DNA from: a virus
Lineage: Duplodnaviria; Caudoviricetes
Length of the DNA: 64,000 nt
Reading direction: 5' to 3' (one strand)
Virus record (IMG/VR): IMGVR_UViG_3300028591_000096
Shown: one piece after another, positions 18,981-52,465 of the stretch
Layout: each line of letters starts with the position of its first letter
How positions within the stretch are numbered: the stretch's first letter is position 1
The notes under the pieces: generated by a model
The model's input: the letters and a program-made list of their open reading frames with translations, nothing else
Databases searched by the model: none
What the model was told of the DNA's origin: nothing
Program-made: the position numbers and the translations under genes

Positions 18981-19003
18981 CAATTAAATTATATCTTTAT
19001 ATT

Positions 19004-19032
19004 ATTATACGTTCAAATTGTATTAATGATTA
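19004..19032 (-). promoter_or_regulatory. Bipartite promoter TAATCATT-N13-CGTATAAT upstream of the helicase
   Basis: Four copies in the window, all with a 13-nt spacer. Confidence 0.75.
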
Positions 19033-28216: not shown

Positions 28217-29734
28217 TTATAGTTTAAAGTCCTGATATCTTTTATTTTTCTCTTCCTTATCTGTTATTTTAACAAGTGAAGCCTCATCACCTTTCTTTAT
28301 AGTATAATCTTTACCTTCTGCTGGATCAATCAATTTAACATCTTGAACAGAATTTATTCTATCTCCAAAATCTTTAAGGAAATCTTCGTATTCTTCAAGT
28401 GCAGCATCCTGTAATATTGTTTTAATTGATTCTACTTTAGCATAGTAAAGTTCAAGAGCAATTTTACTAACTTCATTTACCCCTTTACCTGGAATAGTAT
28501 AAATATCACCATCTTTCATCTTTACTTTATAAAGATCGTAATGTTTATCCATTTTGTAGTATATATCCCTTATCTGATCTCTTGCTGTTCTTGAGTTGAA
28601 GTCCTTAGCTATTTCAGCAGGTTCTCCAGAATTATATCCAGGAATATTAAGAATGAAATTAGCATATCCTACTTTATATGGGGAAAAACTTCCATATTTA
28701 TATGTAGGTTTAGGCAATGGTTTTAAAGATGGTTCCTTTGGTCTATTTGGTTGTACAGTTGTCACATTAAGGAATTTATTCTGTTGTGGAACTTCTATCT
28801 TTTCCCCTCTTATTACTTCAACCTTTCCGTCAACTTTTGGTTCCTCCAATGTATCAAGAACAACAGAAGATGCCATTACCTCGTTCATGGTATCACAAAG
28901 TTCTTTTCTTGTGTTCAGTGCTTCGTTATATGCTTGTTTTTGTGTTGGTGCTGACCAATAACACATTTCACCATCATCAAAATAGAACTTATATTTAGGA
29001 CAACCTTGATTTATCTTCTCATTCAATTTATTATAGCATGGCTTTGTAGTGTATGCTATAATCATATTTGCCATTGTTTTTGCATTTTCCTCAGAATCAG
29101 ATCTTACTCTAAGTATTTCATCATTAGATAAAGTAACCCAATAAGGAACGAATATAGCGTTCATTGCTATATTCTTGGCTTCATTTGGATCTATACTTGA
29201 GTCAGCTGTACTGGAATCTTTCGTCAGCGCAGCAACTCCAGCTATAGCCCCAGCTCCAGCAGCACCACCTAAAACAGATTTAGATAATCTCTTAAACCAT
29301 CCTTCCTTGTTTTTATCCGAATAAGATGAAGATTTTCCTTTATGTGGGGTAGCAAGATAATCAACCCAAAATCTTGGATTCAATCTGTTAAGCCATGAAT
29401 TCTTATCCTCATATTTTTCCCTAATTCTATGAGACAATGCCCCTAGCCCAGCAAGAAGTACAGCAGGCCAACATATAATTGTAGTGATAGCTAAACTTGG
29501 AATGGATTGAAGCATTCCACTTATACCTCCTACTCTTGAACCTCCTGTTCTATCAAATCTTCCACCAGATCCATAATAAGAATGAGATTCATTTATAGAC
29601 TGAAACATAATATCAGATCCGTATCTTGACACAAGACTTTCAAGAATCATCATATCATATTCTTCTATATTATTTTTCTCTATAGATTCTGTTGTATATG
29701 TAGGTTTTATAATCATATATTTCTGATAAATCAT
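28217..29734 (-). CDS. Probable internal virion protein with two hydrophobic segments and four beta-beta-alpha repeats (probable start 29716)
   Basis: ILES and INES motifs; late promoter at 29740-29748 lies too close to the first ATG. Confidence 0.6.
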   Translation of the reverse strand: MIYQKYMIIKPTYTTESIEKNNIEEYDMMILESLVSRYGSDIMFQSINESHSYYGSGGRFDRTGGSRVGGISGMLQSIPSLAITTIICWPAVLLAGLGALSHRIREKYEDKNSWLNRLNPRFWVDYLATPHKGKSSSYSDKNKEGWFKRLSKSVLGGAAGAGAIAGVAALTKDSSTADSSIDPNEAKNIAMNAIFVPYWVTLSNDEILRVRSDSEENAKTMANMIIAYTTKPCYNKLNEKINQGCPKYKFYFDDGEMCYWSAPTQKQAYNEALNTRKELCDTMNEVMASSVVLDTLEEPKVDGKVEVIRGEKIEVPQQNKFLNVTTVQPNRPKEPSLKPLPKPTYKYGSFSPYKVGYANFILNIPGYNSGEPAEIAKDFNSRTARDQIRDIYYKMDKHYDLYKVKMKDGDIYTIPGKGVNEVSKIALELYYAKVESIKTILQDAALEEYEDFLKDFGDRINSVQDVKLIDPAEGKDYTIKKGDEASLVKITDKEEKNKRYQDFKL

Positions 29735-29739
29735 TTAAC

Positions 29740-29748
29740 TATTTATCT
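29740..29748 (-). promoter_or_regulatory. Late promoter AGATAAATA
   Basis: Lies just downstream of the terminator of the VWA operon. Confidence 0.7.
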
Positions 29749-29767: not shown

Positions 29768-29800
29768 AAAAGAGAGAATCTTGTCGATCCTCTCTTTTTT
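29768..29800 (-). terminator. Intrinsic terminator of the AAA/peptidase/VWA operon
   Basis: AAAAGAGAGAATC...GATCCTCTCTTTTTT hairpin. Confidence 0.7.
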
Positions 29801-29818
29801 AAATATCTTATTTTACAA

Positions 29819-32800
29819 TTAAGCTACTGTAGCACCAGTCTGTTTGTAAGTCTGTTGTGAAGCAAATCTTCTAGCAGCCTTTGCAACAGCACGACAAGCA
29901 CCATCAAGATCAACAAGGAAGTCTGTCATATTTTCCTCGTTATTTGCATTGATAACAGAACTACATGTGTAGAATACATCATTCAACAGAGGAAGTGTTA
30001 TATTCATCCAATCTATAGCACCGTTTGTCTTGATTGTATTAGCAATCTCAATAACCTTATTAAGCTGGTTTCTGATACGTCTAATCATATCTTCCTTAGT
30101 TGCGAAATGATCGACTGCATCTTCAGATGCACCAGCAAAATCAAGATTCTTCATTGCGTCATTAACCTTAACAATGTCACCAGACAAATCGTCAATAACT
30201 TGAGCAAATTTTGTCTTTGTTTGCTCAGTCTTAGCATCTTCACCGTTATCCTGCTGTGCAGATACATTAGAAGCTTTCTTACTACGGTTTCTTTCACCAA
30301 GTTTCTTCATTTTCTTGGCCGTAATATTAGCAGCTTCGTCTGATTCACCAGCAAGAATCTTGTACTCCTCACCAAATCTCATTGCTGACTTTACAAGCTT
30401 TTCGCCTTCATCCACTATAGCTTTATAATCATTTTCTGGATTAACGATAAACTCAATATGATCAATAACATCATTAAGAGTTTCTACCATTTTTTCAATG
30501 ACATCCTGTTTCTTTGTAATAAGATCCTCATTATTAATCAATTTAGACTTAATAAGATTAGAATAATTATAAAGTATATCTACACTATCATCTATTTTAC
30601 TTAAAAGTGTTTTATTACTATACCAACTATGTGCGTTTGTATATTCATCTATAGCGTTCTTTAATGCATTTTTAACATCATTAAATATTAATTTATTTGC
30701 TAAAATATAATCAATACATCCGCTAAAACTTGCAAATATGTCATTCTGATCTGCGATTTTTTTAGATGAGCTTGCACCTTTAATATCATTACGTGTTCTT
30801 TCTCCAGTTGCACGATCATAATCGTAATTCTTTATATCATTATACATACCAGATTTATAGATATCACGAAGAACTTTCTTTCCCACAAGTTTAAGAGCTT
30901 CATCGTTAACATCAACACGGATATCATATTCCTTTTCACATTTGTCAGGGAACATCATAAGAACATCAAATGGATTAGAATGATCATAATTATCATCTGT
31001 ATCTTTATCTTTACCCTTAAACGAAAGTGATTTTAATGCTGTTTTAACATTATCAACGTCTTTGATAGAATCTATCATATTAAGAAGTTCTGATCTATCA
31101 GCATCAATAATTTCATCAATTGTATATCTTGGTTTATCATCAACACCTCTTAATGAAGATCCAATAAGCAAAGCTTTTATAAAGTTATCAGAGAAGAATG
31201 TAAACACATTTTGTCCATTATTTGATGAAAAATATGCACCGTTGAACTCAGTTTTTGCATTATAATTTGGACTCTTTCCATTCTGTTTAAATGGAATTGT
31301 ATATTTTCTATTTCTTGTATAAACTATAACAGAATCTCCTTTTTCTCTGTAACTACCAAACATATCATTTAGTAATTTTGCAAAAATTTCATCATTATCA
31401 GAACAATTTCTAATAAGATTTGGTTCAAGAATATTTTCAACCTTAAAATGATACTTATCTTCAACTGTTAATCCTCTTAATGTTGCCATCACAAAATAAA
31501 GAATATGTAAAGCTGTGTCTTCAATAGATGCTGGTCCATTTTTATCATCTTCATGATATTTTGCATCTGGAATATTACCTGGATCAATTCCAAGACTATC
31601 AAGATAAGTATAAGTCTGCTTCAATACATTATATCTAAAATCAATTTCTTGCTTAATCTTTTCTTGATCCGTAATAGGATTACCATCGCTATCAGTAAGA
31701 AAAACAATTTTTGCATCCTTACCTTTTTTATCTTGAGCATACACTGCGCTTATAACATCATCGGATGTTGTAAACAATCTAATGCCAGCATATCCTAACT
31801 GGTTTATATTATCTTTATGCTTCTCAAAATACTTAGTTTCTCTTGCTGCTAATCTAACTTGACTAATATCTGTTATAACAGTAACATCATCATCTTTTAT
31901 ATCACCCCATCCAACATTAAGTATAGGATCAATCACATCGAAGAATACATTTCTATTCTTCTTGTATAGTTCAGTTGATGCTATATAATCATCTTCAGAA
32001 ACCTTGCTTCCAGCTTGAGGTTTTGAACGTCTTGGAAATATAGTGCTAAGTTTCTTAGGCATAGCCATTTCATTAATAAATGACTCACTTAGAGCTATTC
32101 TGTTCTTAATGATATCAGCTACACTTTCGTTATTTCTCTTAGTCATTGTAAATACATGTTTTGGTTTATTTTCGAGTTCACTTATTGGTGTAAGAGTCTT
32201 CATCAATGATGTAACATATTTATTCTGAGCATCCTTTGATATATGTTTATTCATTGGATAACATACATTGATTGATACACGCCCAGTAACTGCCTGTGGA
32301 GCATTGTCAAATCCACCCAAATTGGCAAGATTAAACATTACTAAATCACCACCTATTTCCTTAGGGAACCCAACAGGGAATCCTCTGAATGTTCTGGTAT
32401 TCTTCAGTTTTACATTACCGATAAGCTGATCGATAGTCATTACGGAACAAGCTTCGCAGAGATTATTGATGTTAGATCCATCAACATCCATATGAAGAAT
32501 AACATGAGCTTCCTCTGTAACATAATATGTATTAGGAGTAGCCATTACAGCCGTATATTCCTTTACCATATTACAGTTAGGGAAGAACTTTTCCAGATTA
32601 GCAACAAGTTCAGGAAGAACCTTCTCAAGCTGACCCACAGCACGAGCACCCTGAATTTCGGCTTTTCTCAGACGCTCATTCTTTTCATCTTCTGTTCTTT
32701 CAGATGGATCGATCTGAGCTTGTTGTTGCTTTTGCTGAATCTTCTTCAAGCCTCCAAGAGCCTCGTTCATATTCATTCTCTTTTGGTTAATATTCATTGA

Positions 32801-35230
32801 TTCACTTTTCAAGTCGATAATACCACGACTCTTTCTGATACGATCTTCAATTTTCTTCATTGTTTCAGCGGCTTGAGACGCAAACTCCTTTTTCCATTCT
32901 TCAGATGGATCGATCTGACCTTGTTGTTGCTGTGTCTGACCTTGACTCTTTCTGATACGATCTTCAATTTTCTTCATTGTTTCAGCGGCTTGAGACGCAA
33001 ACTCCTTTTTCCATTCTTCAGATGGATCGATCTGACCTTGTTGTTGCTGTGTCTGACCTTGTTGTTGCTGTGGCGGAATCTTCTTCAAGCTTCCAAGAGC
33101 CTCGTTCATATTCATTCTCTTTTGGTTAATATTCATTGATTCACTTAATATTTGTTTTCTAAATGCTTCTACTGAAATTTCATAGTGTTGTGAATACTTT
33201 GATACAAGTTGATCCATTTCTTCTGTAACTTCCTTGAGATACATATTAGCATAATCGTTATATATTACGTAAAGCATTCTCTCAAGTGTATGCTGACCTA
33301 ATTTAGCCGCGAATGGTTTAATGTTTCCAGAATACTGCATGCCAGAAACGTCTGTAATGATAATGATCGCATTAATATCATAATTAAGCTCACCATCATT
33401 CATATAGTTCTTGATAATATGCTTGTAAACTTCGTGAATGTTCGTACCACCACCGTCATCAGCACCTTCAATACCCCAGTTTTCATCCTGTACTGTATAT
33501 GAATCCACATCAAAGTGTTCATTATATACAACATCATCAAACAGATGAATATCAACAGTATTGAAATGACAATCCTGCATAATCTTTCCAACTTCACCAG
33601 CCATGATAGGAATAAGCTGTGTCATGCCGTTATTTACAGAACCAGATGTATCTATATATACAACACACTTATTAAAATCATTGAAAGCCTTTACTCTATG
33701 TTTAAGACCTATACCAGTTCTCTGATATACGTTCTTACGTAGTGGGCCTTTTTCATATGTATGAGATCTCTCGGAAATAAAATCCTGTAAGGCTTTTTTC
33801 CAGTCGATAATACCTTCACGACTCTTTCTGATACGACCTTCAATTTTATTCTTCATTGTTTCAGCGGCAGACACAAGCTCCTTATCGTCTTGTGGGGCAT
33901 GTTTGAATATATCGCCAATGATAGGGAATGCTTCTTTAATCATAGCGTCTTCATCATCACTCATACCCCAATCTGGATCCTTAGGTGTAACACCCATTTC
34001 CTTGCGTATTTCATCACCTATCTTTTCATCTATTACGTGAGCACCAATCATAAGTTCACCTGGATCTACTGTTCCGTTCCTCATAACAATAACATCATCT
34101 GGAACATAGATTTCTTTCTCTTCTGGATCCTGTTGTTTGTTTCCACTACCTTTTATTGTATTTCTGAACAGATCATGAATCTTGCTTGTTCTCTCATCAT
34201 CATTTATACTTGTATCATCGAGCAAAGCTGCAATGTCATCATCGATAGATTCATTCAATGATTCGAGAATCTTCATAGGATCAAGATTATCTGGAAGCTC
34301 AACCTGGTCTCTCATAACAGGTGCAAGACCTCTATGTTTGTACATTTCCTCAGCATATTTCTTACCAAGAATATATCCTATAGAATATTCGTCAATCTGT
34401 GAAGCATTTTCTTGTGAACCTTGTTGCTGTTGGTTTCCTTGTCCATGCTGACCGTTTTGATTCTGGCTTTGTGAATTACCTTGTCCTTGACCTTGCTGTT
34501 GGTTTCCTTGTCCCTGCTGTCCTTGTGAACCACCACCTTGACCATTCTGATTACCAGATTGTCCCTGCTGTCCACCTTGCTGACCTTGAGACTGTGAACC
34601 ACCTTGTCCGTTTTGCTGATTACCTTGAGATCCTTGAGATCCTCCACCGTTCTGTTGATTACCAGACTGGTTTCCTTGCTGTCCGCTTTGAGAACCACCA
34701 TTTGATCCTTGATTACCAGATTGATTACCTTGCTGACCATTTTGTCCACCATTTGAACCATTCTGACCTTGATTACCAGACTGATTACCCTGATTTCCTT
34801 GTGATCCGTTTCCGTTTTGCTGATTACCATTCTGTTGACCATTCTGACCAACACCCTGATTCTTCAACTGATTATGGCTTACATTATGGACACCATTGTT
34901 ATTGTTCTGTCCATTCTGTCCCTGACCCTGTCCTTGACCTTGACCGTTTTGTCCCTGTCCCTGACCGTTCTGACCTTGTTGACCGTTACCTTGATTCTGA
35001 CCCTGGCCTTGTCCCTGACCATTCTGATTCTGATCATCATTTTGTCCGTTGCCACTATTTCCACCAGAGGCAGAATTACCAGCACCACCAGCATCTTTTG
35101 TATCAGCACCAGTCACACCACCAGAATTTGCGGAATTGTAAATATCCTTAATCTTCTGGATTTTCTCTTGCTTGGATAATGTCTTATCCTGTACAACTTG
35201 GTTGATTTCTTTTTTTACATCGTAACGCAT
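29819..35230 (-). CDS. Giant VWA (DUF2201-type) protein with Q/N/G low-complexity tract and long C-terminal extension
   Basis: IDWKKAL, VYIDTSGSV (MIDAS), GGGTN, IIITD; adjacent to an HExxH peptidase and a MoxR ATPase. Confidence 0.85.
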   Translation of the reverse strand: MRYDVKKEINQVVQDKTLSKQEKIQKIKDIYNSANSGGVTGADTKDAGGAGNSASGGNSGNGQNDDQNQNGQGQGQGQNQGNGQQGQNGQGQGQNGQGQGQGQGQNGQNNNNGVHNVSHNQLKNQGVGQNGQQNGNQQNGNGSQGNQGNQSGNQGQNGSNGGQNGQQGNQSGNQGSNGGSQSGQQGNQSGNQQNGGGSQGSQGNQQNGQGGSQSQGQQGGQQGQSGNQNGQGGGSQGQQGQGNQQQGQGQGNSQSQNQNGQHGQGNQQQQGSQENASQIDEYSIGYILGKKYAEEMYKHRGLAPVMRDQVELPDNLDPMKILESLNESIDDDIAALLDDTSINDDERTSKIHDLFRNTIKGSGNKQQDPEEKEIYVPDDVIVMRNGTVDPGELMIGAHVIDEKIGDEIRKEMGVTPKDPDWGMSDDEDAMIKEAFPIIGDIFKHAPQDDKELVSAAETMKNKIEGRIRKSREGIIDWKKALQDFISERSHTYEKGPLRKNVYQRTGIGLKHRVKAFNDFNKCVVYIDTSGSVNNGMTQLIPIMAGEVGKIMQDCHFNTVDIHLFDDVVYNEHFDVDSYTVQDENWGIEGADDGGGTNIHEVYKHIIKNYMNDGELNYDINAIIIITDVSGMQYSGNIKPFAAKLGQHTLERMLYVIYNDYANMYLKEVTEEMDQLVSKYSQHYEISVEAFRKQILSESMNINQKRMNMNEALGSLKKIPPQQQQGQTQQQQGQIDPSEEWKKEFASQAAETMKKIEDRIRKSQGQTQQQQGQIDPSEEWKKEFASQAAETMKKIEDRIRKSRGIIDLKSESMNINQKRMNMNEALGGLKKIQQKQQQAQIDPSERTEDEKNERLRKAEIQGARAVGQLEKVLPELVANLEKFFPNCNMVKEYTAVMATPNTYYVTEEAHVILHMDVDGSNINNLCEACSVMTIDQLIGNVKLKNTRTFRGFPVGFPKEIGGDLVMFNLANLGGFDNAPQAVTGRVSINVCYPMNKHISKDAQNKYVTSLMKTLTPISELENKPKHVFTMTKRNNESVADIIKNRIALSESFINEMAMPKKLSTIFPRRSKPQAGSKVSEDDYIASTELYKKNRNVFFDVIDPILNVGWGDIKDDDVTVITDISQVRLAARETKYFEKHKDNINQLGYAGIRLFTTSDDVISAVYAQDKKGKDAKIVFLTDSDGNPITDQEKIKQEIDFRYNVLKQTYTYLDSLGIDPGNIPDAKYHEDDKNGPASIEDTALHILYFVMATLRGLTVEDKYHFKVENILEPNLIRNCSDNDEIFAKLLNDMFGSYREKGDSVIVYTRNRKYTIPFKQNGKSPNYNAKTEFNGAYFSSNNGQNVFTFFSDNFIKALLIGSSLRGVDDKPRYTIDEIIDADRSELLNMIDSIKDVDNVKTALKSLSFKGKDKDTDDNYDHSNPFDVLMMFPDKCEKEYDIRVDVNDEALKLVGKKVLRDIYKSGMYNDIKNYDYDRATGERTRNDIKGASSSKKIADQNDIFASFSGCIDYILANKLIFNDVKNALKNAIDEYTNAHSWYSNKTLLSKIDDSVDILYNYSNLIKSKLINNEDLITKKQDVIEKMVETLNDVIDHIEFIVNPENDYKAIVDEGEKLVKSAMRFGEEYKILAGESDEAANITAKKMKKLGERNRSKKASNVSAQQDNGEDAKTEQTKTKFAQVIDDLSGDIVKVNDAMKNLDFAGASEDAVDHFATKEDMIRRIRNQLNKVIEIANTIKTNGAIDWMNITLPLLNDVFYTCSSVINANNEENMTDFLVDLDGACRAVAKAARRFASQQTYKQTGATVA
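32737..33146 (-). repeat. In-frame composite duplication: 117-bp tandem repeat x2 (32827-33060) flanked by 71-bp direct repeats (32737-32807 and 33076-33146)
   Basis: Directly visible. The 39-aa unit is QGQTQQQQGQIDPSEEWKKEFASQAAETMKKIEDRIRKS. Confidence 0.92.
34400..35135 (-). repeat. Roughly 245-codon Gln/Gly/Asn/Ser low-complexity coding tract
   Basis: QGQGQ, NGQQG and GNQSGNQ units in translation. Confidence 0.9.
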
Positions 35231-35922
35231 TTTTCAACAAGACTTTCTTTTCTTAATTTATCCATAACTTCTGCATATCCATCTGCAAAACCTTTCTTCC
35301 ATTCATCGGATGTCTTTTCAAGAACCTTTGTTCTCTTCTGTCTTGGTACTTTGTCATATATCTCTTCCCAAGTAAGACCTTTCTTTCCGAATTCATCACT
35401 ATAACATCCACCTAAAGCATTAGTAATACCTTTGAAAGGTGCTGTTCCTGGCCCCTGTCTCATGAAATTCTCAATAGTATAATTGATTTCATAGTCCTGT
35501 GCCATGTTTACTATTTCAGCATCCGAATATTTATCAAGCGTAGCCATGTGCTTGTTACAGTGATCAAACAGAATATGAAGTGCTTCGTGAATAAGAACAA
35601 ATTCAACATATAATGGACCTTTGTCTTCATCCATATTGATAAGCTGTTCAGCAAAAGCTGGGTTAATAAAGATAGAAACACCGTCAGTAGCCATAGTAGG
35701 AACATAAGGATTATCAGTATATATAATATCCTTATGTTTCATGATACGTTCAACGCTTGGAAAATACTGTGCTAAGTCTTGCATTACAGCTTCAACGACC
35801 ATAACAACAGTATCCATGTCAACGGCTGTACCATCTTTCTTTATCCAAATAGGATTTCCAGACTGCGATTCAAACAATCTGGAAGTCTCTATTGGAGCAT
35901 CTGTATATTTTATCACATACAT
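35215..35922 (-). CDS. DUF2201-N-like HExxH metallopeptidase
   Basis: PTMATDG..INP, FVLIHEALHILFDH, NMAQDYEIN, GLTWEEIYD. Confidence 0.85.
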   Translation of the reverse strand: MYVIKYTDAPIETSRLFESQSGNPIWIKKDGTAVDMDTVVMVVEAVMQDLAQYFPSVERIMKHKDIIYTDNPYVPTMATDGVSIFINPAFAEQLINMDEDKGPLYVEFVLIHEALHILFDHCNKHMATLDKYSDAEIVNMAQDYEINYTIENFMRQGPGTAPFKGITNALGGCYSDEFGKKGLTWEEIYDKVPRQKRTKVLEKTSDEWKKGFADGYAEVMDKLRKESLVEKCVTM

Positions 35923-35927
35923 AGTGA

Positions 35928-37946
35928 TTAAACTAATTCGTTTTTAGCAATAACTTCTTCTTTATAATTTGCCGCATCAGCATATGGGCCTTGCAGTGAC
36001 TTAAGATCAACATTGAATTCAAATCCGAACATTGTACTTATAGTCTTGAATCTGTTCAAGTTAAACTTACCACTGTCATAGCAGCAAGCCTCAAGGAATT
36101 GCATAAAGTGAAGCGCAGCATCAGGAGCAACACCATTCTCAAGTCCACCAGGATAACAATCCTTCAGAAGTGGGAAGATATGATTAGTGAAGTATTCCTC
36201 AATGTTAGAAGAATTAAGCTTCTGCTGCTTGATAATTTCATATTTAGCATTATCACCCTTTGTCCATACATTCTCTGCATCAGCTGGAGTGAACAAAGAG
36301 AACTGAGCAACGAATGTTGCGAATCTCTTGGCAACGTCACCACCGACGATACCAGAAGCGATGTGTGCAAGAGCAGCCTTTGGCATAGACGAAATTGCAG
36401 GATACTTCTTACCAAATCTATTATCAAGGCACTGATCAATCAACGTTTCGCTAAGTGCCTCCCAAGTACGAGGGTTAGCTGTACCCTTTTCACCATTAAG
36501 TACTCCTGTTGGATGAGTCCACATTTCATAGAAATCACCAAAATTCTTTGGATCTCTTTTAAGTTCACTTTCAATATAACTTACAATATCAGTAAGAACG
36601 TTCTTTCTTCCTGGACGACGTGAAGAATCTCTTTTTGCCCAATCAAGCCAGTCTTTAGGATCTGGAACAAAATTACAGTGGTTGAAACGAGTCTTAGATG
36701 CACCTTCAAATAAAAGAGCTTCAGAACCTCCTCTGCGACTCATATCATCTTTACGGTTAGCAGCACACACAATAATCCATCTATCACCAAATCTTAATGT
36801 AGAGTTAGAACCAATTTCACGAGTTGTTGGGGTTTGCATGAGAGAATCCATACCAGCTTGTGTCATACGTGAATATTCATCGATGAAGAATATTCCGCCA
36901 GGACCATTTTCAATTACATCATTTCCGTTCTCATCCTTAACAAGACCACCTCCATTTGCAATAGCATTGAGAAGTTCTGGATCTGCCTCATCACTTTGTG
37001 GATTATAAACTGGTAACCATGTCTTTGGAAGATCCTTAATCACAGTTTGTGTTGCCCCCTTGAAGTCATCGTTGTCAGCATCTTCAATATCATTTGATGT
37101 GATAGTCTTTACGATTGAAGCTGGCATAGTGAAGTCATCTGGACCTACGTTACCACCATTTATAGAAATAATGTTAATTTCCTTTCCAGTTTCATTCTTT
37201 ACAACCTCTTTAAGTGAACGAATAATAGAAGTCTTACCAATACCAGGCGCACCCCAGATTAAAAGAGGAAGTGAGTTAGGCTTTCTTCCTTCATAGCGAC
37301 TCATATATTCGTTTGCAATATAATTTACAATTTGTTCTTGTGACCAGTCACAAAATGTACCCTTAAGATCAATTTTTTCTTCTTTTTTAAGATATGTATC
37401 CTCAGCCTCGAACAAAGTCTTGAGAAGACTAGTTGATCCTTTAACAGATTCATTTGTTGCACCACTGAAATCAATAGCACCTTCGTATTCACCACCAAAC
37501 TCGTAATTCTCTACAGCTTCTGGTGTAATGCCGAGTTCGTTACAAAGTTCAACTGTATCAGATCCAGGAACATAGTTTACACAATTTGTAGTCTTAGCAC
37601 CTTCCATAGCATTAACTGGATGGCTTGCCTCAAGATACTTGTTTTCTGTTCCCTTGAAGATAACGAATCCGTCAGTAACGAAAGCCTTAACCAAGAATTC
37701 TTTTACATTCTTTGCAATATCCTTAACTTTTGATGCAAACTTGCGACCATACTTGTTGACTGTCTCAGCAGCACCTCGAACAGTATCAAGAACACCTTCA
37801 TCAATTTTGTCAAGATTTGTTACTCTGCCCTTAGGGACATTCTGAATAACCCCGTTCTTAAAACGAACAATGTAATTGTTTGCTGATTCATTCAGAATCT
37901 CACAATTTACAACGTTATTGCTATTCTTTAATTTATATTTTGCCAT
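35928..37946 (-). CDS. MoxR-like AAA+ ATPase with N-terminal extension
   Basis: IWGAPGIGKTS, IFFIDEYSR, CAANR, KTRFNH, NPRTWE. Confidence 0.88.
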   Translation of the reverse strand: MAKYKLKNSNNVVNCEILNESANNYIVRFKNGVIQNVPKGRVTNLDKIDEGVLDTVRGAAETVNKYGRKFASKVKDIAKNVKEFLVKAFVTDGFVIFKGTENKYLEASHPVNAMEGAKTTNCVNYVPGSDTVELCNELGITPEAVENYEFGGEYEGAIDFSGATNESVKGSTSLLKTLFEAEDTYLKKEEKIDLKGTFCDWSQEQIVNYIANEYMSRYEGRKPNSLPLLIWGAPGIGKTSIIRSLKEVVKNETGKEINIISINGGNVGPDDFTMPASIVKTITSNDIEDADNDDFKGATQTVIKDLPKTWLPVYNPQSDEADPELLNAIANGGGLVKDENGNDVIENGPGGIFFIDEYSRMTQAGMDSLMQTPTTREIGSNSTLRFGDRWIIVCAANRKDDMSRRGGSEALLFEGASKTRFNHCNFVPDPKDWLDWAKRDSSRRPGRKNVLTDIVSYIESELKRDPKNFGDFYEMWTHPTGVLNGEKGTANPRTWEALSETLIDQCLDNRFGKKYPAISSMPKAALAHIASGIVGGDVAKRFATFVAQFSLFTPADAENVWTKGDNAKYEIIKQQKLNSSNIEEYFTNHIFPLLKDCYPGGLENGVAPDAALHFMQFLEACCYDSGKFNLNRFKTISTMFGFEFNVDLKSLQGPYADAANYKEEVIAKNELV

Positions 37947-37975
37947 TTTAATATATTAAAAATTTTAATTATCAA

Positions 37976-38791
37976 TTATAAGAAAAGCCACATGAAAAGA
38001 GTATTCTCTTTCATTAAGCCTATAAGGTTGTTTACAAATTTTTCCTTTTCTGATTGAGCTAGTGAAATATGACTTGCATTTATCAAATTAAATAAAAAAG
38101 TCTTAAATTCATTTTCATGTCCTCCAGATTCCCAACCAAGTTTATTAAGGTAAGCTATAATATTCTTTGCAAATGTTCTACATTTAGTATTTTCTGGACG
38201 ATATGAAAGATTATCAATATTATCAAATGCTAAACATATTTCAGCGTACATCTCATCAGTTCTGTTTAATACAGATTCATATAATTTCTTGCTAAATCTG
38301 ATCTTGGATTTATAAGATTCATCAACACATTTGACATCAACATCACCACCATTTTCAGCGATTGTCTTGTTAATAAGAATCATCTGCTGTTCAATGTTCT
38401 TTACATTCTGCTGATAAGTTGTTTTCTTTACAAGCTTTTTGTTAGCAAGATCATTAAGAGCTATATTTGTTTGTATTAACTTTGCTTTGTTTGCTTGTGC
38501 CTGTTCATCTGTCTGAATGTCAGCAGCCTGCAAATCTCCTCTTTGTTTTTGTAAAAGAGTAATTTGATCATTCAACACCTTGATATCAGCATCGTATTGA
38601 GTTTTTAATTGAGTCTTTTTATTGACAAGTGCAACAAGTTGCTGTGAAAGTTCAGTCGTATCTGTATTTTTATCTTGTGTTTGATCTACAGTATTAGTGT
38701 TGGTTTCCTGACTTGCGTTAGATTCACCATCGCCATTCTGAATTTCATCAGCTTCTTGAAGTTTTTTGTTTGTGTAAATATTAATCTTCAT
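37976..38791 (-). CDS. Coiled-coil protein, first gene of the late AAA/VWA operon
   Basis: Gln-rich heptads; LQEA, VDES and LYES motifs. Confidence 0.7.
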   Translation of the reverse strand: MKINIYTNKKLQEADEIQNGDGESNASQETNTNTVDQTQDKNTDTTELSQQLVALVNKKTQLKTQYDADIKVLNDQITLLQKQRGDLQAADIQTDEQAQANKAKLIQTNIALNDLANKKLVKKTTYQQNVKNIEQQMILINKTIAENGGDVDVKCVDESYKSKIRFSKKLYESVLNRTDEMYAEICLAFDNIDNLSYRPENTKCRTFAKNIIAYLNKLGWESGGHENEFKTFLFNLINASHISLAQSEKEKFVNNLIGLMKENTLFMWLFL

Positions 38792-38815
38792 TGCTATAAA
38801 GCAAAATCATTTTAT

Positions 38816-38852
38816 TATTTATCTAAAAAGAAAATGCTTGAACAAATAAATA
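38816..38852. promoter_or_regulatory. Back-to-back late promoters (38816-38824 minus; 38844-38852 plus)
   Basis: AGATAAATA and AAATAAATA, each 24 nt from an ATG. Confidence 0.65.
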
Positions 38853-39896: not shown

Positions 39897-40343
39897 CTAA
39901 ATTGAATAAACATTATCTGATAATGAAACCTGCATACTTTGAGTTAGTTTCATATATCCAAGATTTCTCCATCCCTTTGCAAATCCGTTTCTACATATAG
40001 ACGTTATATAAGCAAACGCGTTCTGTGTCACATTCTCATCAAAATCATTGAAATATCTAATACAATCACCAACGGCTGTATATATACAATCTATTCTATC
40101 TTCTTCATTTGTATATTTAAGTTTATTTGATAATTTTGTTGCAATCTGTATAAACATCTTTGCAAGTTCATCACTAGCTTGTCCGTTGTTTTCTCGTTTA
40201 CATTTTAATATTTCAGCAAGTAGAACAGAGTTTTTTACATAGTGTTGTGATTCTGGAGTTCTTCCTATACTATTGAGTGTTTCATCAATAAATTCCTCAC
40301 CTCGTTTCTGACATCTCAGTTTTTCCTGTAATTTTGTAGACAT
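39897..40343 (-). CDS. Late-transcription sigma factor, T4 gp55-like
   Basis: HYVKNSVLLAEI, MFIQIATKLS, DRIDCI, YFNDFD..NAFAYITSIC parallel gp55. Confidence 0.85.
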   Translation of the reverse strand: MSTKLQEKLRCQKRGEEFIDETLNSIGRTPESQHYVKNSVLLAEILKCKRENNGQASDELAKMFIQIATKLSNKLKYTNEEDRIDCIYTAVGDCIRYFNDFDENVTQNAFAYITSICRNGFAKGWRNLGYMKLTQSMQVSLSDNVYSI

Positions 40344-40372
40344 CTATTTTATAAAAGTTACTCTTTTATATT

Positions 40373-40401
40373 ATTATACGTTATTTTTATTAAAATGATT
40401 A
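40373..40401 (-). promoter_or_regulatory. Bipartite promoter TAATCATT-N13-CGTATAAT upstream of the gp55-like sigma
   Basis: Same motif and spacing as at 19004, 52437 and 55331. Confidence 0.75.
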
Positions 40402-40909: not shown

Positions 40910-43900
40910 TTAGGAAAGTGTTGTAATAGCACTCTCCATCAACTTTTCAACCTCTGGCTTGAAATAATCTTCAGATCCACAAATCATAAGATTTCCACCA
41001 GGAATATTACTCATATGAGTTTCTCCATTTTCGTCAAATATAAGTGTTCTGACAGGAACGGTTTCCTCATTCATAACCATATAATTTTGGTAGTCTCTTA
41101 TATTAATCAAAACATCGGTATTTTGTTCAACACCTTCAACGATGTATGTCATAGTACCTTTTGAATAATTAGCAAGATCTAAAATCTCATCAAGACTTTC
41201 TGTAATTCTGATATACTTTTTCTGAGCTGTTGTTTTCTCACCTTCTATAATCAAATTAATTTCAGCATCGTCTTTTGCAGTCATGAATTCAAGTAACTGA
41301 ACTTTACAATCATTTGGTGTAACCTGAGTGTTGTTTACAAATAGTCCACAATTTACGTAGCTTTCGTAAACACCTTTTAGTGTAGCAACATCATATTTGA
41401 AAGGAGTATCAACAAGATCAAATCTTGTATGTACCAATTCAACATCAGATTTTGGATAAATCTTTGTATGACCATTAACATTCACAATAAAGTTACCGTC
41501 AGCTTGCTTGCAAATAATCTGCCCTTTGTTACCATCCTTGCATTTTACATAGTCAATTACATTAGGTTCTGCAACATTGAGTTCTGATTCATTCAAATGA
41601 TTATTGCCGTTTGACTTCATCGATTCGTCAGTCTTTGACTTCTTAACCTTAAACTTAAACTTCTTCTTTGGTTTATCGTCTTCTGAATCTTTATTCTCTA
41701 ATCCATCATCCTTTTTAGATTCTTCCTTGTTATTTTCTTTCTCGGGATTTTCTTCATTGGATTCGACATCATCAGCTTTATCGGATTTTTTGTCCTCAGT
41801 TCCTTTATTGGAACCATTTACATTTTCATCACCCTTATCGTTATTGTCTTTATCTTCATCGTTTTCGTCCGCTGATTCTTCATCATCTTTAAATGCAAGA
41901 CTTTCTTGTGGATTAAATGTAACATCCTTAAATGAATCATCAAAATCTGCTGTTACCTCATCAGCTGTTCCTTTATCATCATCACCATTAAGTTCGCTGG
42001 TGTTGATCGTCACCGTCTTACCAGTGGTATCATCCTTTACAGTGATGGTGACGTTCTCACTTAGGAATTGAAAAAAATCCCTGGCCTCTACAGGAGCAGT
42101 ATCACCATAGAATGATTCAAGAATCTTCTTTGCTTTCTTGTAATTTTCTTTCAAGATTTCTGTTGACATATTTTCGTTTACATGTGTAACTTCGAATCCA
42201 TTAGATGTCAATTTTTGTGCAAGAAAATTATTGTAAGGAACATTGAGTTTGTAGCTGTAATTGCTTTCACAAATCTTACCATATTCATCACCGTACTTTT
42301 CAAGAATATCAACAACGTCCTGCTCTACATTACCATTATTCTTTCTTGCGTAGTTATAGAGTGATTCATAAATTTTGAATTCTTCGTCTTTATTCTCAGG
42401 AACAACCTGGAATTGAGTTATGTTTCCTTTCTTCTCAATACCGAATAATTCACAAAGACCTTCATTGCATGGAAGCATTACACGAAAAGAATCCTTCTTT
42501 GATTCGCTAATTGCCTTAACACCCTTAATATGAACACTTTCATTTGCTGGCATTACATCAATGTTAGCTGGCTTGTTGTCAAAGCATTTCTTTAATTCTG
42601 GGAAGAATGAACAGAATTGATCGTCATCATAAGCCTTCCACTCATGGAAATACTTCTTTAATGCATGAGCTTGTGCTTTATTTGCAATCTTCAGACAAAT
42701 TTCTCCGTCATTTGCTTCGCTTTCCGTATGTTCAATCTTCATCTTATCATCAAGATCCTTCTCAAAATCAGCAACATCGATTGGTGCAATCTCTTCTGGA
42801 TAAAGACCTACTGTGATAGGATATGCTGCTTCCTCTGCGTCAGCCTGTTGAATTTCAGCAGGAGTTTCTTGAAGATCGGATTTATCTTCGGTTTTTGTGC
42901 TAGCATCTATTGTACCCTCTATATTTATATCATCTGTGTCTTCTGCTGGTATATCTATAACAGTAGATTCAATCGTATCTTCTTTTTCTGGAACTTTTAC
43001 TTCACCTACCGATACAGCATCAGTTTGTGGATCATTAATAATAGCATCAACAATCTGAGTATACATATCAAGTGGCATGTATTCATTATTGATGATAGGT
43101 GTCTTATCCTGATCAAGATAGAAAGTTACCTTTCTCATATCATCATGAACATCACCATTAGCATCAACAGAAGGAATAACAAGTATTACTTCACCATGTC
43201 CGTTTTCAGCACCAGTTTTAACATTTCTATTATAAGAAACCTTTACAATTTGAAACTTACCGTAACCTATATCTGTTGACTTCCCTTGTTCTGTTTCTGA
43301 ATTAACAACTTCAGTTGGAACATCGAAATCTGGATCATATTCAACAACATCAGCAAATTCAGCATCACCAGCAAACTCATCTTCACCAGAAGTTTCACCA
43401 GTCTCATCCTCAATAGGTTTTTCCATATCCTCAGCTGATTCCTTATCTGGATCTAAATCATCACCAACTTTATCGTTGTTTTCTTCACTATCGTCAGATT
43501 TATCATCATTTTTATCATTACTATCATCGTCATCAGGAACTTCATCATCAAGACTATCATGAGCGTCATCATCATCACCATTCAGATACTTTTCAGAATC
43601 CTTTTGATATTTCAAGAAATCAGACTTTGTATCATCAAGCTCCTTATCGATCATATCAATAGCATTATCGATATCTTCTGTATCTGCACCCTCATCCTTC
43701 ATTGCTTTTAGAGTTTCCTTCTTCTCCTCAAGAGAATCGATATAATCCTGATATTCCTTCTTCTTATCTTCGATGTTCTTTATAACCTTTTCCTGTTCTG
43801 GAAGTTCATCCTCAAACAATGGGCCACAGTTAATTTCCATATGTTCGTTAATATACTTACGACATTGGATAGGATTAACATTACGATAGAATGTAGATCT

Positions 43901-45508
43901 ACCAAGATTACTATTTGTTGTATTTACGAAAATACTTTCCTTAAGCTTGAATACATCACAAGATTTTCCGCTATTATCTCTTGATTCAATTCTCTTAACG
44001 AAATCAATATAAGCAATATCATTATAATGTTCATTAAGTGCAACAGACATCGCATAGAACTCAGCATCGTCACTTCTCATAGCGATTGCTGTTTCCATAA
44101 GTTTCTTCAATTCATCAGAAGTAACTTCTTTATCATTAACGGTAATCTCTGATTCTGTAATAACACACTTATTAGCACCACCATAAACAGTGATGGAATT
44201 AAGTTCATGAGAGAATCTCACCTTATCAGAATTAACAAGATTACAAAGCGATTTGAAAGACTCGTTAAGTTCTGAAACTTCATTTTTTGTAAGTTTTGCT
44301 ATATTGTTACCCTTTCTTGCAAAATAAGCACCCTTGACGTTGAATACACATTCATTTTCCTTAATAAACTTAACAGGAGAGAAAATAAGTTCCGTCTTAA
44401 CCTGATTGTTAAGATATTCAACAGATTCTCCAAGATATACAGTGTTTTCAATAGAAAGATCTCTTGTAATCAAACACTCCATATCTCTAACAAATGGATC
44501 ATATTCAAAAGCCTCTAATCTCTGTAGAAGAATAGCACGAGTTGCCATGTTCTTATTCTCAACATAATCAACAACTACATCTTCGATAAGCGGAACGATG
44601 TAATAAGAACCAGTCTGAGCCATAGTCTCAAGAATCTTCTTAAGATCAATATCCTGCTTATACTGTGAAACTCTGTCTTTCAGTGCTGATAATTCAGTGT
44701 CAACCGCACTCAGATAGTTCCAGTTAGATATACCAGAAATGAAAGATTCATATAAAAGTTCCTCTGGTTTTCCAGCATTAAGAGCATTTATATACTGCTC
44801 ACAGAAAACCTTAAGTTTTTCATTTTTATTACCTTTCAGAATTGCTGTAATAGCTTCGCTAAGACCAATATGATTCTTAATCATACTCTTTGTCTTTTTC
44901 TGAACATTCTTTTCAGCCTCGGCCATCTCGTTAACCTTATCGTTGAGAATCTTATCAACTTCCTCTTGAGTATATGTCTTAACATCTGGAGCCTTGAAAG
45001 CTTCTTTCAATTCCGCATTAACAAGTTTCTTACCGTTCTTCTCTTCATACTGCTCATACTGAAGAGTCTCAAGAATGTTCTGAATTGTACTATCACTTTC
45101 AAACAGTGAAAGATTGATCTTAACATTATCTCTTGTTGTTGAATTCTTGTCAATAATGTAATCAACAACAGCAGACTCAATCATTGGAGCAACAAACATA
45201 CATGAACCGTTGCTTAAGTTATAAACACTGTTTGCTAACTTAATATTAGCTTCATTAGCTTTCACGGCCTCATTCATGTCATTCAGAACAGTCTTAGCTG
45301 TTTCGGATTCTGCAATCTTAGAAAGATCCACAACAAACTGCTCACAGATCTGTTCCTCATGCATTCCGCTGTCAAGCTTCTCCTTATATTCTTTACAGAA
45401 ATTCTGAATGGATATAGAATTTGACTCGGAAAGCGAAAGCTTCTCAATTGCGGCACGGATCGGTACGATCGTGACCATAGAGAGGGTTTTGTTTTCCATT
45501 TTTTCCAT
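40910..45508 (-). CDS. Large acidic protein, putative prohead core/scaffold or internal head protein
   Basis: 1532 aa with many (I/L/V)-x-E motifs (LSES, LFES, LYES, LNES, ITES, LKES), coiled coil and D/E tracts; late promoter at 45550-45558. Confidence 0.55.
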   Translation of the reverse strand: MEKMENKTLSMVTIVPIRAAIEKLSLSESNSISIQNFCKEYKEKLDSGMHEEQICEQFVVDLSKIAESETAKTVLNDMNEAVKANEANIKLANSVYNLSNGSCMFVAPMIESAVVDYIIDKNSTTRDNVKINLSLFESDSTIQNILETLQYEQYEEKNGKKLVNAELKEAFKAPDVKTYTQEEVDKILNDKVNEMAEAEKNVQKKTKSMIKNHIGLSEAITAILKGNKNEKLKVFCEQYINALNAGKPEELLYESFISGISNWNYLSAVDTELSALKDRVSQYKQDIDLKKILETMAQTGSYYIVPLIEDVVVDYVENKNMATRAILLQRLEAFEYDPFVRDMECLITRDLSIENTVYLGESVEYLNNQVKTELIFSPVKFIKENECVFNVKGAYFARKGNNIAKLTKNEVSELNESFKSLCNLVNSDKVRFSHELNSITVYGGANKCVITESEITVNDKEVTSDELKKLMETAIAMRSDDAEFYAMSVALNEHYNDIAYIDFVKRIESRDNSGKSCDVFKLKESIFVNTTNSNLGRSTFYRNVNPIQCRKYINEHMEINCGPLFEDELPEQEKVIKNIEDKKKEYQDYIDSLEEKKETLKAMKDEGADTEDIDNAIDMIDKELDDTKSDFLKYQKDSEKYLNGDDDDAHDSLDDEVPDDDDSNDKNDDKSDDSEENNDKVGDDLDPDKESAEDMEKPIEDETGETSGEDEFAGDAEFADVVEYDPDFDVPTEVVNSETEQGKSTDIGYGKFQIVKVSYNRNVKTGAENGHGEVILVIPSVDANGDVHDDMRKVTFYLDQDKTPIINNEYMPLDMYTQIVDAIINDPQTDAVSVGEVKVPEKEDTIESTVIDIPAEDTDDINIEGTIDASTKTEDKSDLQETPAEIQQADAEEAAYPITVGLYPEEIAPIDVADFEKDLDDKMKIEHTESEANDGEICLKIANKAQAHALKKYFHEWKAYDDDQFCSFFPELKKCFDNKPANIDVMPANESVHIKGVKAISESKKDSFRVMLPCNEGLCELFGIEKKGNITQFQVVPENKDEEFKIYESLYNYARKNNGNVEQDVVDILEKYGDEYGKICESNYSYKLNVPYNNFLAQKLTSNGFEVTHVNENMSTEILKENYKKAKKILESFYGDTAPVEARDFFQFLSENVTITVKDDTTGKTVTINTSELNGDDDKGTADEVTADFDDSFKDVTFNPQESLAFKDDEESADENDEDKDNNDKGDENVNGSNKGTEDKKSDKADDVESNEENPEKENNKEESKKDDGLENKDSEDDKPKKKFKFKVKKSKTDESMKSNGNNHLNESELNVAEPNVIDYVKCKDGNKGQIICKQADGNFIVNVNGHTKIYPKSDVELVHTRFDLVDTPFKYDVATLKGVYESYVNCGLFVNNTQVTPNDCKVQLLEFMTAKDDAEINLIIEGEKTTAQKKYIRITESLDEILDLANYSKGTMTYIVEGVEQNTDVLINIRDYQNYMVMNEETVPVRTLIFDENGETHMSNIPGGNLMICGSEDYFKPEVEKLMESAITTLS

Positions 45509-52405: not shown

Positions 52406-52436
52406 TTGTGTATCAAATATAATTTGTCTTTATAAT

Positions 52437-52465
52437 ATTATACGTTATTTTATCTAAAATGATTA
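52437..52465 (-). promoter_or_regulatory. Bipartite promoter TAATCATT-N13-CGTATAAT upstream of the gp26-like gene
   Basis: Third copy of the motif. Confidence 0.75.

Follow-up and report, generated by a model that had tools for sequence, protein, structure and literature searches.

What does a large phage do with a AAA+ ATPase, a metallopeptidase and a giant VWA protein that are encoded side by side? The question is raised by an operon in a 64,000-nucleotide (nt) stretch of tailed-phage DNA (Caudoviricetes; IMG/VR record IMGVR_UViG_3300028591_000096), which we call the window. Four co-oriented genes on its minus strand, to which all operon coordinates below refer, follow one another in the order P0001, P0002, P0003 and P0004. 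They encode a coiled-coil-like protein of 271 amino acids (aa) (P0001; 37976–38791), a 672-aa MoxR-like AAA+ ATPase of the phrog_1297 family (P0002; 35928–37946), a 235-aa HExxH metallopeptidase with matches to DUF2201_N and phrog_1314 (P0003; 35215–35922), and a VWA protein of 1803 aa (P0004; 29819–35230). An original prediction, made from the sequence alone, had cast these genes as a late, virion-packaged protein-remodelling system; the genes and motifs that it described are confirmed, and its interpretation is supported in part. The reading that we favor, tentatively and at a little less than an even chance, is that the operon proteins are substrates of the phage prohead protease and therefore cargo that is loaded into the capsid.

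The window comes from a huge uncultured gut or rumen phage. It is a large T4-related myophage with gp32-, gp41- and gp46/47-like proteins, NrdDG, gp55, and baseplate and neck proteins, and its size, extrapolated from the closest relative (L001; a 220-kb contig with an estimated completeness of 60%), is ≈370 kb. The window has no megablast match among 50,697 phage records, where we find no close cultured relative. A 36-kb contig deposited under the name of the rumen Firmicute Sharpea azabuensis encodes an ATPase (P0013) that is 86% identical to P0002, and the GC content of the window is 32%; both observations hint at the host.

A conserved glutamate motif in the operon proteins

The prohead protease of T4, gp21, and its homologs in giant phages cut after a glutamate that follows a short motif; in T4, leaders of ≈10 residues address proteins to the head, and the propeptides of phiKZ carry several redundant sites (PMC9026906). 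Leaders that end in a glutamate motif of this kind are present in the operon as LQE↓A at residues 11–14 of P0001, LNE↓S at residues 18–21 of P0002, and LFE↓S at residues 16–19 of P0003, with the arrow marking the predicted cut. The ATPase carries its leader within an N-terminal extension (residues 1–181; 37404–37946), in which a beta domain (1–45) is followed by IDE↓G (48–51), a second small domain (87–140), and a disordered linker that holds both TNE↓S (164–167) and LFE↓A (178–181). The latter three sites lie in linkers with low values of the predicted local distance difference test (pLDDT), and across 55 homologs the flanks of these sites vary while the motif itself is kept. P0004 bears a double site, ILE↓SLNE↓S (residues 321–328; 34247–34270), whose glutamate and serine positions are retained in 86–95% of 21 homologs, as well as NNES (1033–1036) and LSE↓SF (1047–1051) in a disordered linker that opens its C-terminal region (32078–32134). 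P0001, as we read it, consists of the leader, an acidic and polar tract, a heptad-like stretch, and a conserved C-terminal domain that carries L(Y/F)E(S/A) at residues 170–173.

The strength of the motif signal depends on how the motif is defined. A plain [ILV]xE pattern is not enriched in the four operon proteins (z of 1.4, 0.7, 0.1 and −0.1), whereas [IL]xE[SAG] is present in modest excess, with 14 sites observed and ≈5 expected; no such excess is seen in the window's replication and tail proteins. The x-x-E motifs listed in the original prediction are all present. Among 73 non-identical homologs, the N-terminal extensions contain 234 matches to [ILVM]xE[SAG], compared with 66 expected by shuffling (a 3.5-fold excess), and the ATPase cores of the same proteins contain 76, compared with 98 expected. 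A site is located 40–79 aa before the Walker A motif in 55 of 72 sequences (10.8 ± 3.2 in shuffled sequences), and this spacing is found in 22 of the 26 clusters formed at 40% identity. These data support the view that the glutamate motifs behave like functional short linear motifs, conserved in variable low-pLDDT linkers and enriched across the family.

The boundary between the peptidase and VWA genes coincides with one more such site. P0003 ends in an LVEK sequence (35230–35241), and because the ATG of P0004 overlaps the Lys and Cys codons at the end of P0003, the split between the two genes falls directly after a Φ-x-E site (Φ, hydrophobic). At the same point, relatives have LIE-R or LIE-H, with the VWA gene beginning no more than two codons away, and the relative L004, in which the two proteins are fused, has GLVE↓S exactly at the position where the genes of the window's clade are split. 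The peptidase/VWA split has the appearance of a gene fission that took place at a cleavage site. We rejected a programmed frameshift that would join P0003 and P0004. Although the overlap is kept, the second frame lies at −1 relative to the first in the window and L001, and at +1 in L002 and L003. Since this relation varies between clades, separate, translationally coupled genes fit better.

The motif is also abundant in a protein encoded near the operon. A 1532-aa protein without a family match (40910–45508, minus strand) has 19 [IL]xE[SAG] sites, mostly of the form L-x-E↓S, where 3.5 are expected (z of 8.9). The related genome G004 encodes a protein of similar size (1601 aa) with 21 sites and 7.3 expected, a possible counterpart by size and motif. 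The 1532-aa protein is a candidate for a multi-cut internal head or ejection polyprotein.

Head protease and capsid protein of related phages

An S77 (T4 gp21-type) prohead protease is encoded in 11 of the 15 related records that were searched beyond the L001 fragment, and a gp23-like capsid protein in four of the five relatives searched for one. In those four relatives, the N-termini of the protease and of the capsid protein carry the motif seen in the operon proteins, with examples such as ..QICE↓SWGP, ..QIVE↓SWAP, ..MINE↓AWSP and ..HKINE↓SENTG.

In L083–L086 (genomes G002, G004, G005 and G006), the S77 domain is N-terminal in open reading frames (ORFs) of 562–645 aa (open frames of 570–696 aa), much longer than T4 gp21 at ≈212 aa; a long scaffold-like region probably follows the protease in the same protein. 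G004 also contains nine adjacent, apparently paralogous genes (255967–268874; L109–L110) for proteins of 282–756 aa, which share an eight-residue leader, MK(I/V)(K/R)Y(I/L)xE↓G(V/T/Y)FK, that resembles the T4 capsid-targeting sequence; this array may be an expanded family of head cargo. Elsewhere in the same genome (80369–81800; L101), three small, apparently paralogous proteins of 133–176 aa have the motif at residues 16 and 32, a placement in the style of the T4 internal proteins.

The operon as a late-type transcription unit

The four genes are tightly arranged, with 29 nt between P0001 and P0002, 5 nt between P0002 and P0003, and an overlap of 16 nt between P0003 and P0004. A late-type promoter-like motif, AGATAAATA, is located at 38816–38824, ≈25 nt upstream of the P0001 ATG. 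The window contains eight copies of this motif, compared with 3.0 expected, and when read against the ORF map, seven of the eight are intergenic and oriented toward a gene; the units so preceded include that of a RuvC-like resolvase and an endolysin. The promoter is kept before the operon as (G/A)ATAAATA(A/G)xAAAAC in L001–L004, which have ATPases of 30–80% identity. Both hallmarks of a T4-type late unit are present in the window, a TATAAATA-like −10 element and a gene for a gp55-type sigma factor (39897–40343; phrog_234). The upstream gene ends in a hairpin terminator (39049–39023; 11 pairs, five of them GC, with a T-rich tail), which isolates the operon as a transcription unit of its own, and terminator-like inverted repeats were seen by eye before the promoter in L002–L004. 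A second hairpin terminator closes the operon (29798–29768). The boundaries given in the original prediction, with a promoter of late type at 38816 and a terminator at 29768, are confirmed, and the conserved promoter, the terminators and the gp55-type sigma gene together identify an autonomous unit of the T4 late type. As judged by promoter type, the operon would be expressed late.

Two observations on the surrounding transcription units complete this picture. A second promoter-like class, ACGTATAATAWTATAAA, occurs in three exact copies in the window (18996–19012, 40365–40381 and 52429–52445, all on the minus strand), upstream of a DnaB-like helicase gene, the gp55-like sigma gene and a hub gene; with one further match at two mismatches, these compare with 0.12 expected at up to two mismatches. 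It is probably an early or middle promoter class, in contrast to AGATAAATA. Directly downstream of the operon, a 505-aa protein without a family match (28217–29734, minus strand) has its own AGATAAATA promoter at 29740–29748 and carries ILE↓S at residues 30–33 and INE↓S at residues 47–50. This protein may belong to the same cargo set as the operon proteins.

Proposed packaging as cargo and its main rival

The pattern of N-terminal leaders and multi-site propeptides that end in a glutamate site is that of the T4 internal proteins and Alt and of the processed head and ejection proteins of phiKZ, 201phi2-1 and SPN3US (PMC9026906). In those systems, enzymes travel in the head and enter the host together with the DNA, whereas cleavage and packaging of the window proteins are predicted from sequence. 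We know of no AAA+/VWA/peptidase set that is established as virion cargo. A homologous ATPase was detected by liquid chromatography–mass spectrometry in purified virions of the Staphylococcus jumbo phage DC4 (PMC10638138), but through one peptide, and we give this detection little weight for that reason.

A number of points weigh against the packaging of the operon proteins. The evidence on the S77 protease and the capsid protein is drawn from relatives rather than from the window's own genome, and Pfam searches of the closest relative for S77 and Gp23 found no match in its 220-kb fragment, which is not evidence of absence because the fragment is only 60% complete. The LNE↓S site of the ATPase leader is predicted to be part of a beta-strand, inside a small folded domain. 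The original prediction's picture of added segments ending in x-x-E is only partly right, as the ATPase N-terminus has two small folded domains that are connected by linkers with the motif. The homologs used in the motif counts are related to one another, so these counts are not fully independent. As a set, the peptidase and peptidase-VWA proteins are not enriched in the motif (105 sites, 87 expected). A site near the N-terminus occurs by chance in ≈10% of proteins, and in a 364-kb relative, 34 ORFs have an early site where 26.4 ± 4.4 are expected, which makes it a weak predictor. The DC4 ATPase was identified by a single peptide-spectrum match with 1.75% coverage, beside GroEL and UvsX, and the authors of that study were themselves doubtful (PMC10638138). 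Finally, the cultured homologs sit among replication genes and lack the N-terminal extension; the gene next to the pair of N4-like phages is that of the DNA polymerase.

The main rival to the cargo reading, possible but rather unlikely in our estimation, is a cytoplasmic chaperone-protease that is never packaged and that folds, assembles or trims virion proteins late in infection, with its own HExxH peptidase cutting at the Φ-x-E↓S sites. The chaperone-protease is the proposal of Iyer et al. (2021; Viruses 13:63, PMC7824862), who found the MoxR-vWA pair, together with its N-terminal metallopeptidase, in T4-like jumbo phages of group 2.2 and suggested that it serves virion assembly and processing. 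The late-type promoter of the operon is in keeping with such a role, as is the peptidase, which is intact and always adjacent. The 1532-aa neighbor with its 19 sites could be a substrate, cuts within the operon proteins would then represent autoprocessing or activation, and the cultured homologs are not established virion proteins. This explanation is weakened, however, by the presence of the same motif at the N-termini of two proteins of relatives, the capsid protein and the S77 protease, since processing these ends is what a head protease canonically does. T4, which lacks the module, has the same L/I-x-E specificity (PMC9026906), and N-terminal propeptides with multiple sites are the pattern of prohead substrates.

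The ATPase core and its VWA partner

The original prediction that the Walker A and B motifs, the HEALH motif and the DTSGS motif are all intact is borne out by the translations. In P0002, Walker A (GAPGIGKT; residues 232–239; 37230–37253) is invariant in 55 homologs, and Walker B (IFFIDE; residues 352–357) is located at 36876–36893; across the same homologs, G232–K238, D356, E357, N397, R398, R420 and R493 do not vary. Among Pfam models only the generic AAA model passes its threshold (22.4 bits), and the protein matches phrog_1297 at 8e-22. None of the MoxR-class Pfam models passes (AAA_5, with a cut-off of 22 bits, gives 19, and AAA_3 gives no match), so we label the protein MoxR-like, a member of a divergent phage branch represented by phrog_1297.

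In structure comparison, the best matches of the core belong to two known MoxR-type systems, by a narrow margin. The AlphaFold2 (AF2) model of P0002, built from 55 homologs, has a pLDDT of 75; strand 2 and the Walker B strand are separated in it by an insertion of ≈90 residues that includes two beta-hairpins. The top nine VIA-align matches to this model are CbbQ2 and NorQ/NorQD entries with Z scores from 11.5 to 10.3: CbbQ2 (6l1q) aligns over 235 residues with a Z of 11.5 and a root-mean-square deviation of 3.8, and the NorQ entries score 10.3–11.0 (9qh4 at 11.0). ClpC, Pch2 and dynein follow at a Z of ≈10, a margin of less than 1.5, and Foldseek returns MCM together with CbbQ/NorQ. NorQ-NorD and CbbQ-CbbO provide the best structural matches of the ATPase core and, like the operon, a VWA partner with a metal ion-dependent adhesion site (MIDAS). 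They differ from it in sequence (11–13% identity) and in having neither a peptidase, a phage context nor an N-terminal extension.

P0003 matches DUF2201_N (PF13203) with 35.2 bits, above the cut-off of 23.2, and its zinc-binding HEALH motif (residues 112–116; 35575–35589) is kept as HE(A/V)(L/M)H in L001–L003. P0004 reaches 17.5 bits with the DUF2201 VWA model (PF09967), below the cut-off of 26.4; the fused relative L004 reaches 24.2 bits with the same model and PALS2_187 reaches 33. The VWA-like domain spans residues ≈520–690 (33161–33673) and contains the MIDAS sequence DTSGS (residues 527–531; 33638–33652), and we read GGGTNI (593–598) and IIITDVSG (623–630) as supplying the downstream MIDAS threonine and aspartate. 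These stretches are conserved in 24 homologs, and phmmer ties P0004 to the VWA halves of the fused homologs L011, L020, L063, L065 and L076.

P0004 is much enlarged around this domain. A tract of 232 aa rich in Gln, Gly, Asn and Ser (residues 48–279; 34394–35089) precedes it, and L004, the fused relative, shows a similar tract rich in Gln, Gly and Asn. Two identical tandem units of 117 bp (39 aa) are located at 32827–33061. A database variant, P0113, has 1764 aa, exactly 39 fewer, and is 100% identical over the C-terminal 924 aa; given that the difference equals one unit, it probably has a single repeat copy, and the units appear to differ in copy number. The original prediction of a large C-terminal region without an assigned function is confirmed, with a length of 924 aa (29822–32593). 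The AF2 model of this region (pLDDT of 76) shows mixed alpha/beta domains followed by a helical bundle of ≈300 aa. It has no Pfam, PHROG or NCBIfam family, no sequence relative in the PDB beyond helical-bundle composition, and no Foldseek match at E ≤ 1e-3 in the PDB or BFVD; a wide VIA-align search with the last 300 residues returned generic helical bundles only (Z ≤ 10.8), and the ESM Atlas yielded no usable result. Among 1.84 billion proteins, only 30 representatives have the region, which lies in the C-terminal half of the long ones, the others being short fragments. The 924-aa region has no detectable relatives outside this clade.

P0001 has no Pfam or PHROG family and no match in the ESM Atlas. 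Its heptad-like stretch is coiled-coil-like as read by eye from the sequence, and orthologs are found in L001–L003 only, each immediately upstream of the ATPase gene.

The MIDAS invites a second explanation, a minor one that we consider improbable, in which the glutamate motifs are docking ligands rather than cut sites and the ES motifs, in flexible linkers of both the ATPase and the VWA protein, would tether or auto-inhibit the complex. In VWA and integrin I-domains, an acidic side chain contributed by the binding partner completes the coordination of the MIDAS metal. The MIDAS of P0004 is intact, and an invariant glutamate is present in the disordered linkers beside the ATPase core; the NorQ-NorD and CbbQ-CbbO pairs, which give the best fold matches, act through VWA contacts. 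Docking does not explain the preference for a hydrophobic P3 and a small P1′ residue, however, nor the same motif on the N-termini of the capsid protein and protease, the 19 copies in the unrelated 1532-aa protein, or the split of two genes exactly after LVE.

Distribution and known relatives of the module

A search of IMG/VR with an ATPase profile yielded 80 viral loci, and in 57 of them a DUF2201_N peptidase gene adjoins the ATPase gene, usually fused to the VWA part in one protein of 500–680 aa. This synteny shows that the association of MoxR-like ATPases with DUF2201 peptidase-VWA neighbors, noted in the original prediction, is real and widespread. L001, L002 and L003, whose ATPases are 80%, 39% and 34% identical to P0002, share the four-gene order and have the peptidase on a gene of its own; in L004 and L005, both 364-kb contigs, the peptidase and VWA parts form a fused protein of 1602 aa. 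ATPase homologs are found on metagenomic contigs of up to 320 kb and, through an intermediate homolog, in 621 cultured phage records. The pair is also present in N4-like phages, GAP32 (genes 210/211), Staphylococcus phage PALS_2 (186/187) and phage G. In the cultured versions, Walker A is at residues 27–39 and the N-terminal extension is missing. Because these phages have the core pair without the extension, its basic function is not specific to the head.

Comparison with the individual systems shows what is particular to the window. GAP32, a large T4-related myophage, likewise has an AAA+ gene beside a DUF2201_N HExxH peptidase and a DUF2201 VWA (GAP32_210/211), and the group 2.2 pair shares the proposed connection to virion proteins. 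Unlike in GAP32, the peptidase and VWA of the window are on separate genes, and an extra coiled-coil gene leads the operon. The VWA protein is enlarged to 1803 aa by the Q/G/N tract, the tandem repeats and the additional 924-aa region, and the ATPase has a ≈200-aa N-terminal extension with conserved Φ-x-E↓S sites, which is absent from GAP32_210 with its Walker A at residue 39. N4-like phages (Schitoviridae) have a homologous phrog_1297-type AAA protein and a DUF2201_N/VWA partner, as in genes 60/59 of Vibrio phage 1.238.A, and the same homologous pair is found as genes 33/36 of Delftia phage RG-2014. The N4-like versions are compact (343 and 376 aa), without leaders, and are encoded in the replication region beside the DNA polymerase gene. 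The Staphylococcus jumbo phages DC4 and PALS_2 have an AAA gene beside a 641–643-aa peptidase-VWA protein (UFVDC4_00011/00012 and PALS2_186/187; DUF2201, 33 bits) but are very distant (tblastn E of 1e-4 through an intermediate) and lack the extension. The kind of module is therefore already known; what is new is the gene split, the Q/G/N tract, the 924-aa region and the ATPase N-terminal extension.

The weakest explanation, also minor and in our view very unlikely, is a classical MoxR role in the cytoplasmic maturation of a metallo-enzyme or replication complex, such as the adjacent anaerobic ribonucleotide reductase, with the motifs and promoter incidental: a cofactor-insertion role is ascribed to MoxR-VWA pairs, the solved pairs act on Rubisco and NO reductase as their structure entry titles state, nrdD/nrdG lie directly downstream of the operon, and in N4-like phages, GAP32 and RG-2014 the pair lies beside polymerase, dUTPase or thymidylate synthase genes, but the operon is bounded by a late-type promoter and terminators of its own and does not share a transcript with the nrd genes, the family-wide motif pattern is left unexplained, and cofactor insertion needs neither a peptidase nor a 924-aa extra region.

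A model for packaging and delivery

If the operon proteins are prohead-protease substrates, they would be made alongside the head proteins and addressed to the prohead core by their leaders and N-terminal extensions, as the T4 capsid-targeting sequences do. The S77 (gp21-type) protease would then cut after the glutamate in the Φ-x-E↓S/A/G linkers, releasing the ATPase core, which would begin near residue 182, and removing the leaders of the peptidase and coiled-coil protein. The giant VWA protein would be cut by the head protease near residues 323/327 and 1035/1049. A trimmed hexameric ATPase, a MIDAS-bearing VWA adaptor and the peptidase would remain in the head as cargo, and the module would be delivered with the DNA, grip an acidic residue of its target, and remodel or cleave that target at the start of the next infection. 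Delivery with the DNA is the likeliest use of packaging because simpler phages express the core pair from replication regions without the extension; alternatively, the module may act within the head as it matures. Cleavage and virion presence are predicted here from the motifs and by analogy. We hold it doubtful that the complete machine, made up of a MoxR-like hexamer, a zinc peptidase and a MIDAS adaptor whose 924-aa region would bind the target, is packaged, trimmed and injected as host-takeover or anti-defence cargo.

Implications

If true, this machine would be the first AAA+ chaperone-protease known inside a virion, common to a large clade of megaphages from gut and rumen, and would add a new enzyme class to the virion-delivered proteins, which include T4 Alt and the virion RNA polymerases of N4 and phiKZ. 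The motif map predicts exact mature N-termini for the operon proteins, and the gene split at a cut site would be an example of gene fission replacing proteolysis. The ATPase-peptidase-VWA pair is among the most widespread phage gene sets of unassigned function and is present on many megaphage contigs. If its megaphage versions are head cargo, this would provide a testable handle on the function of the module, which would act at the first moment of infection.

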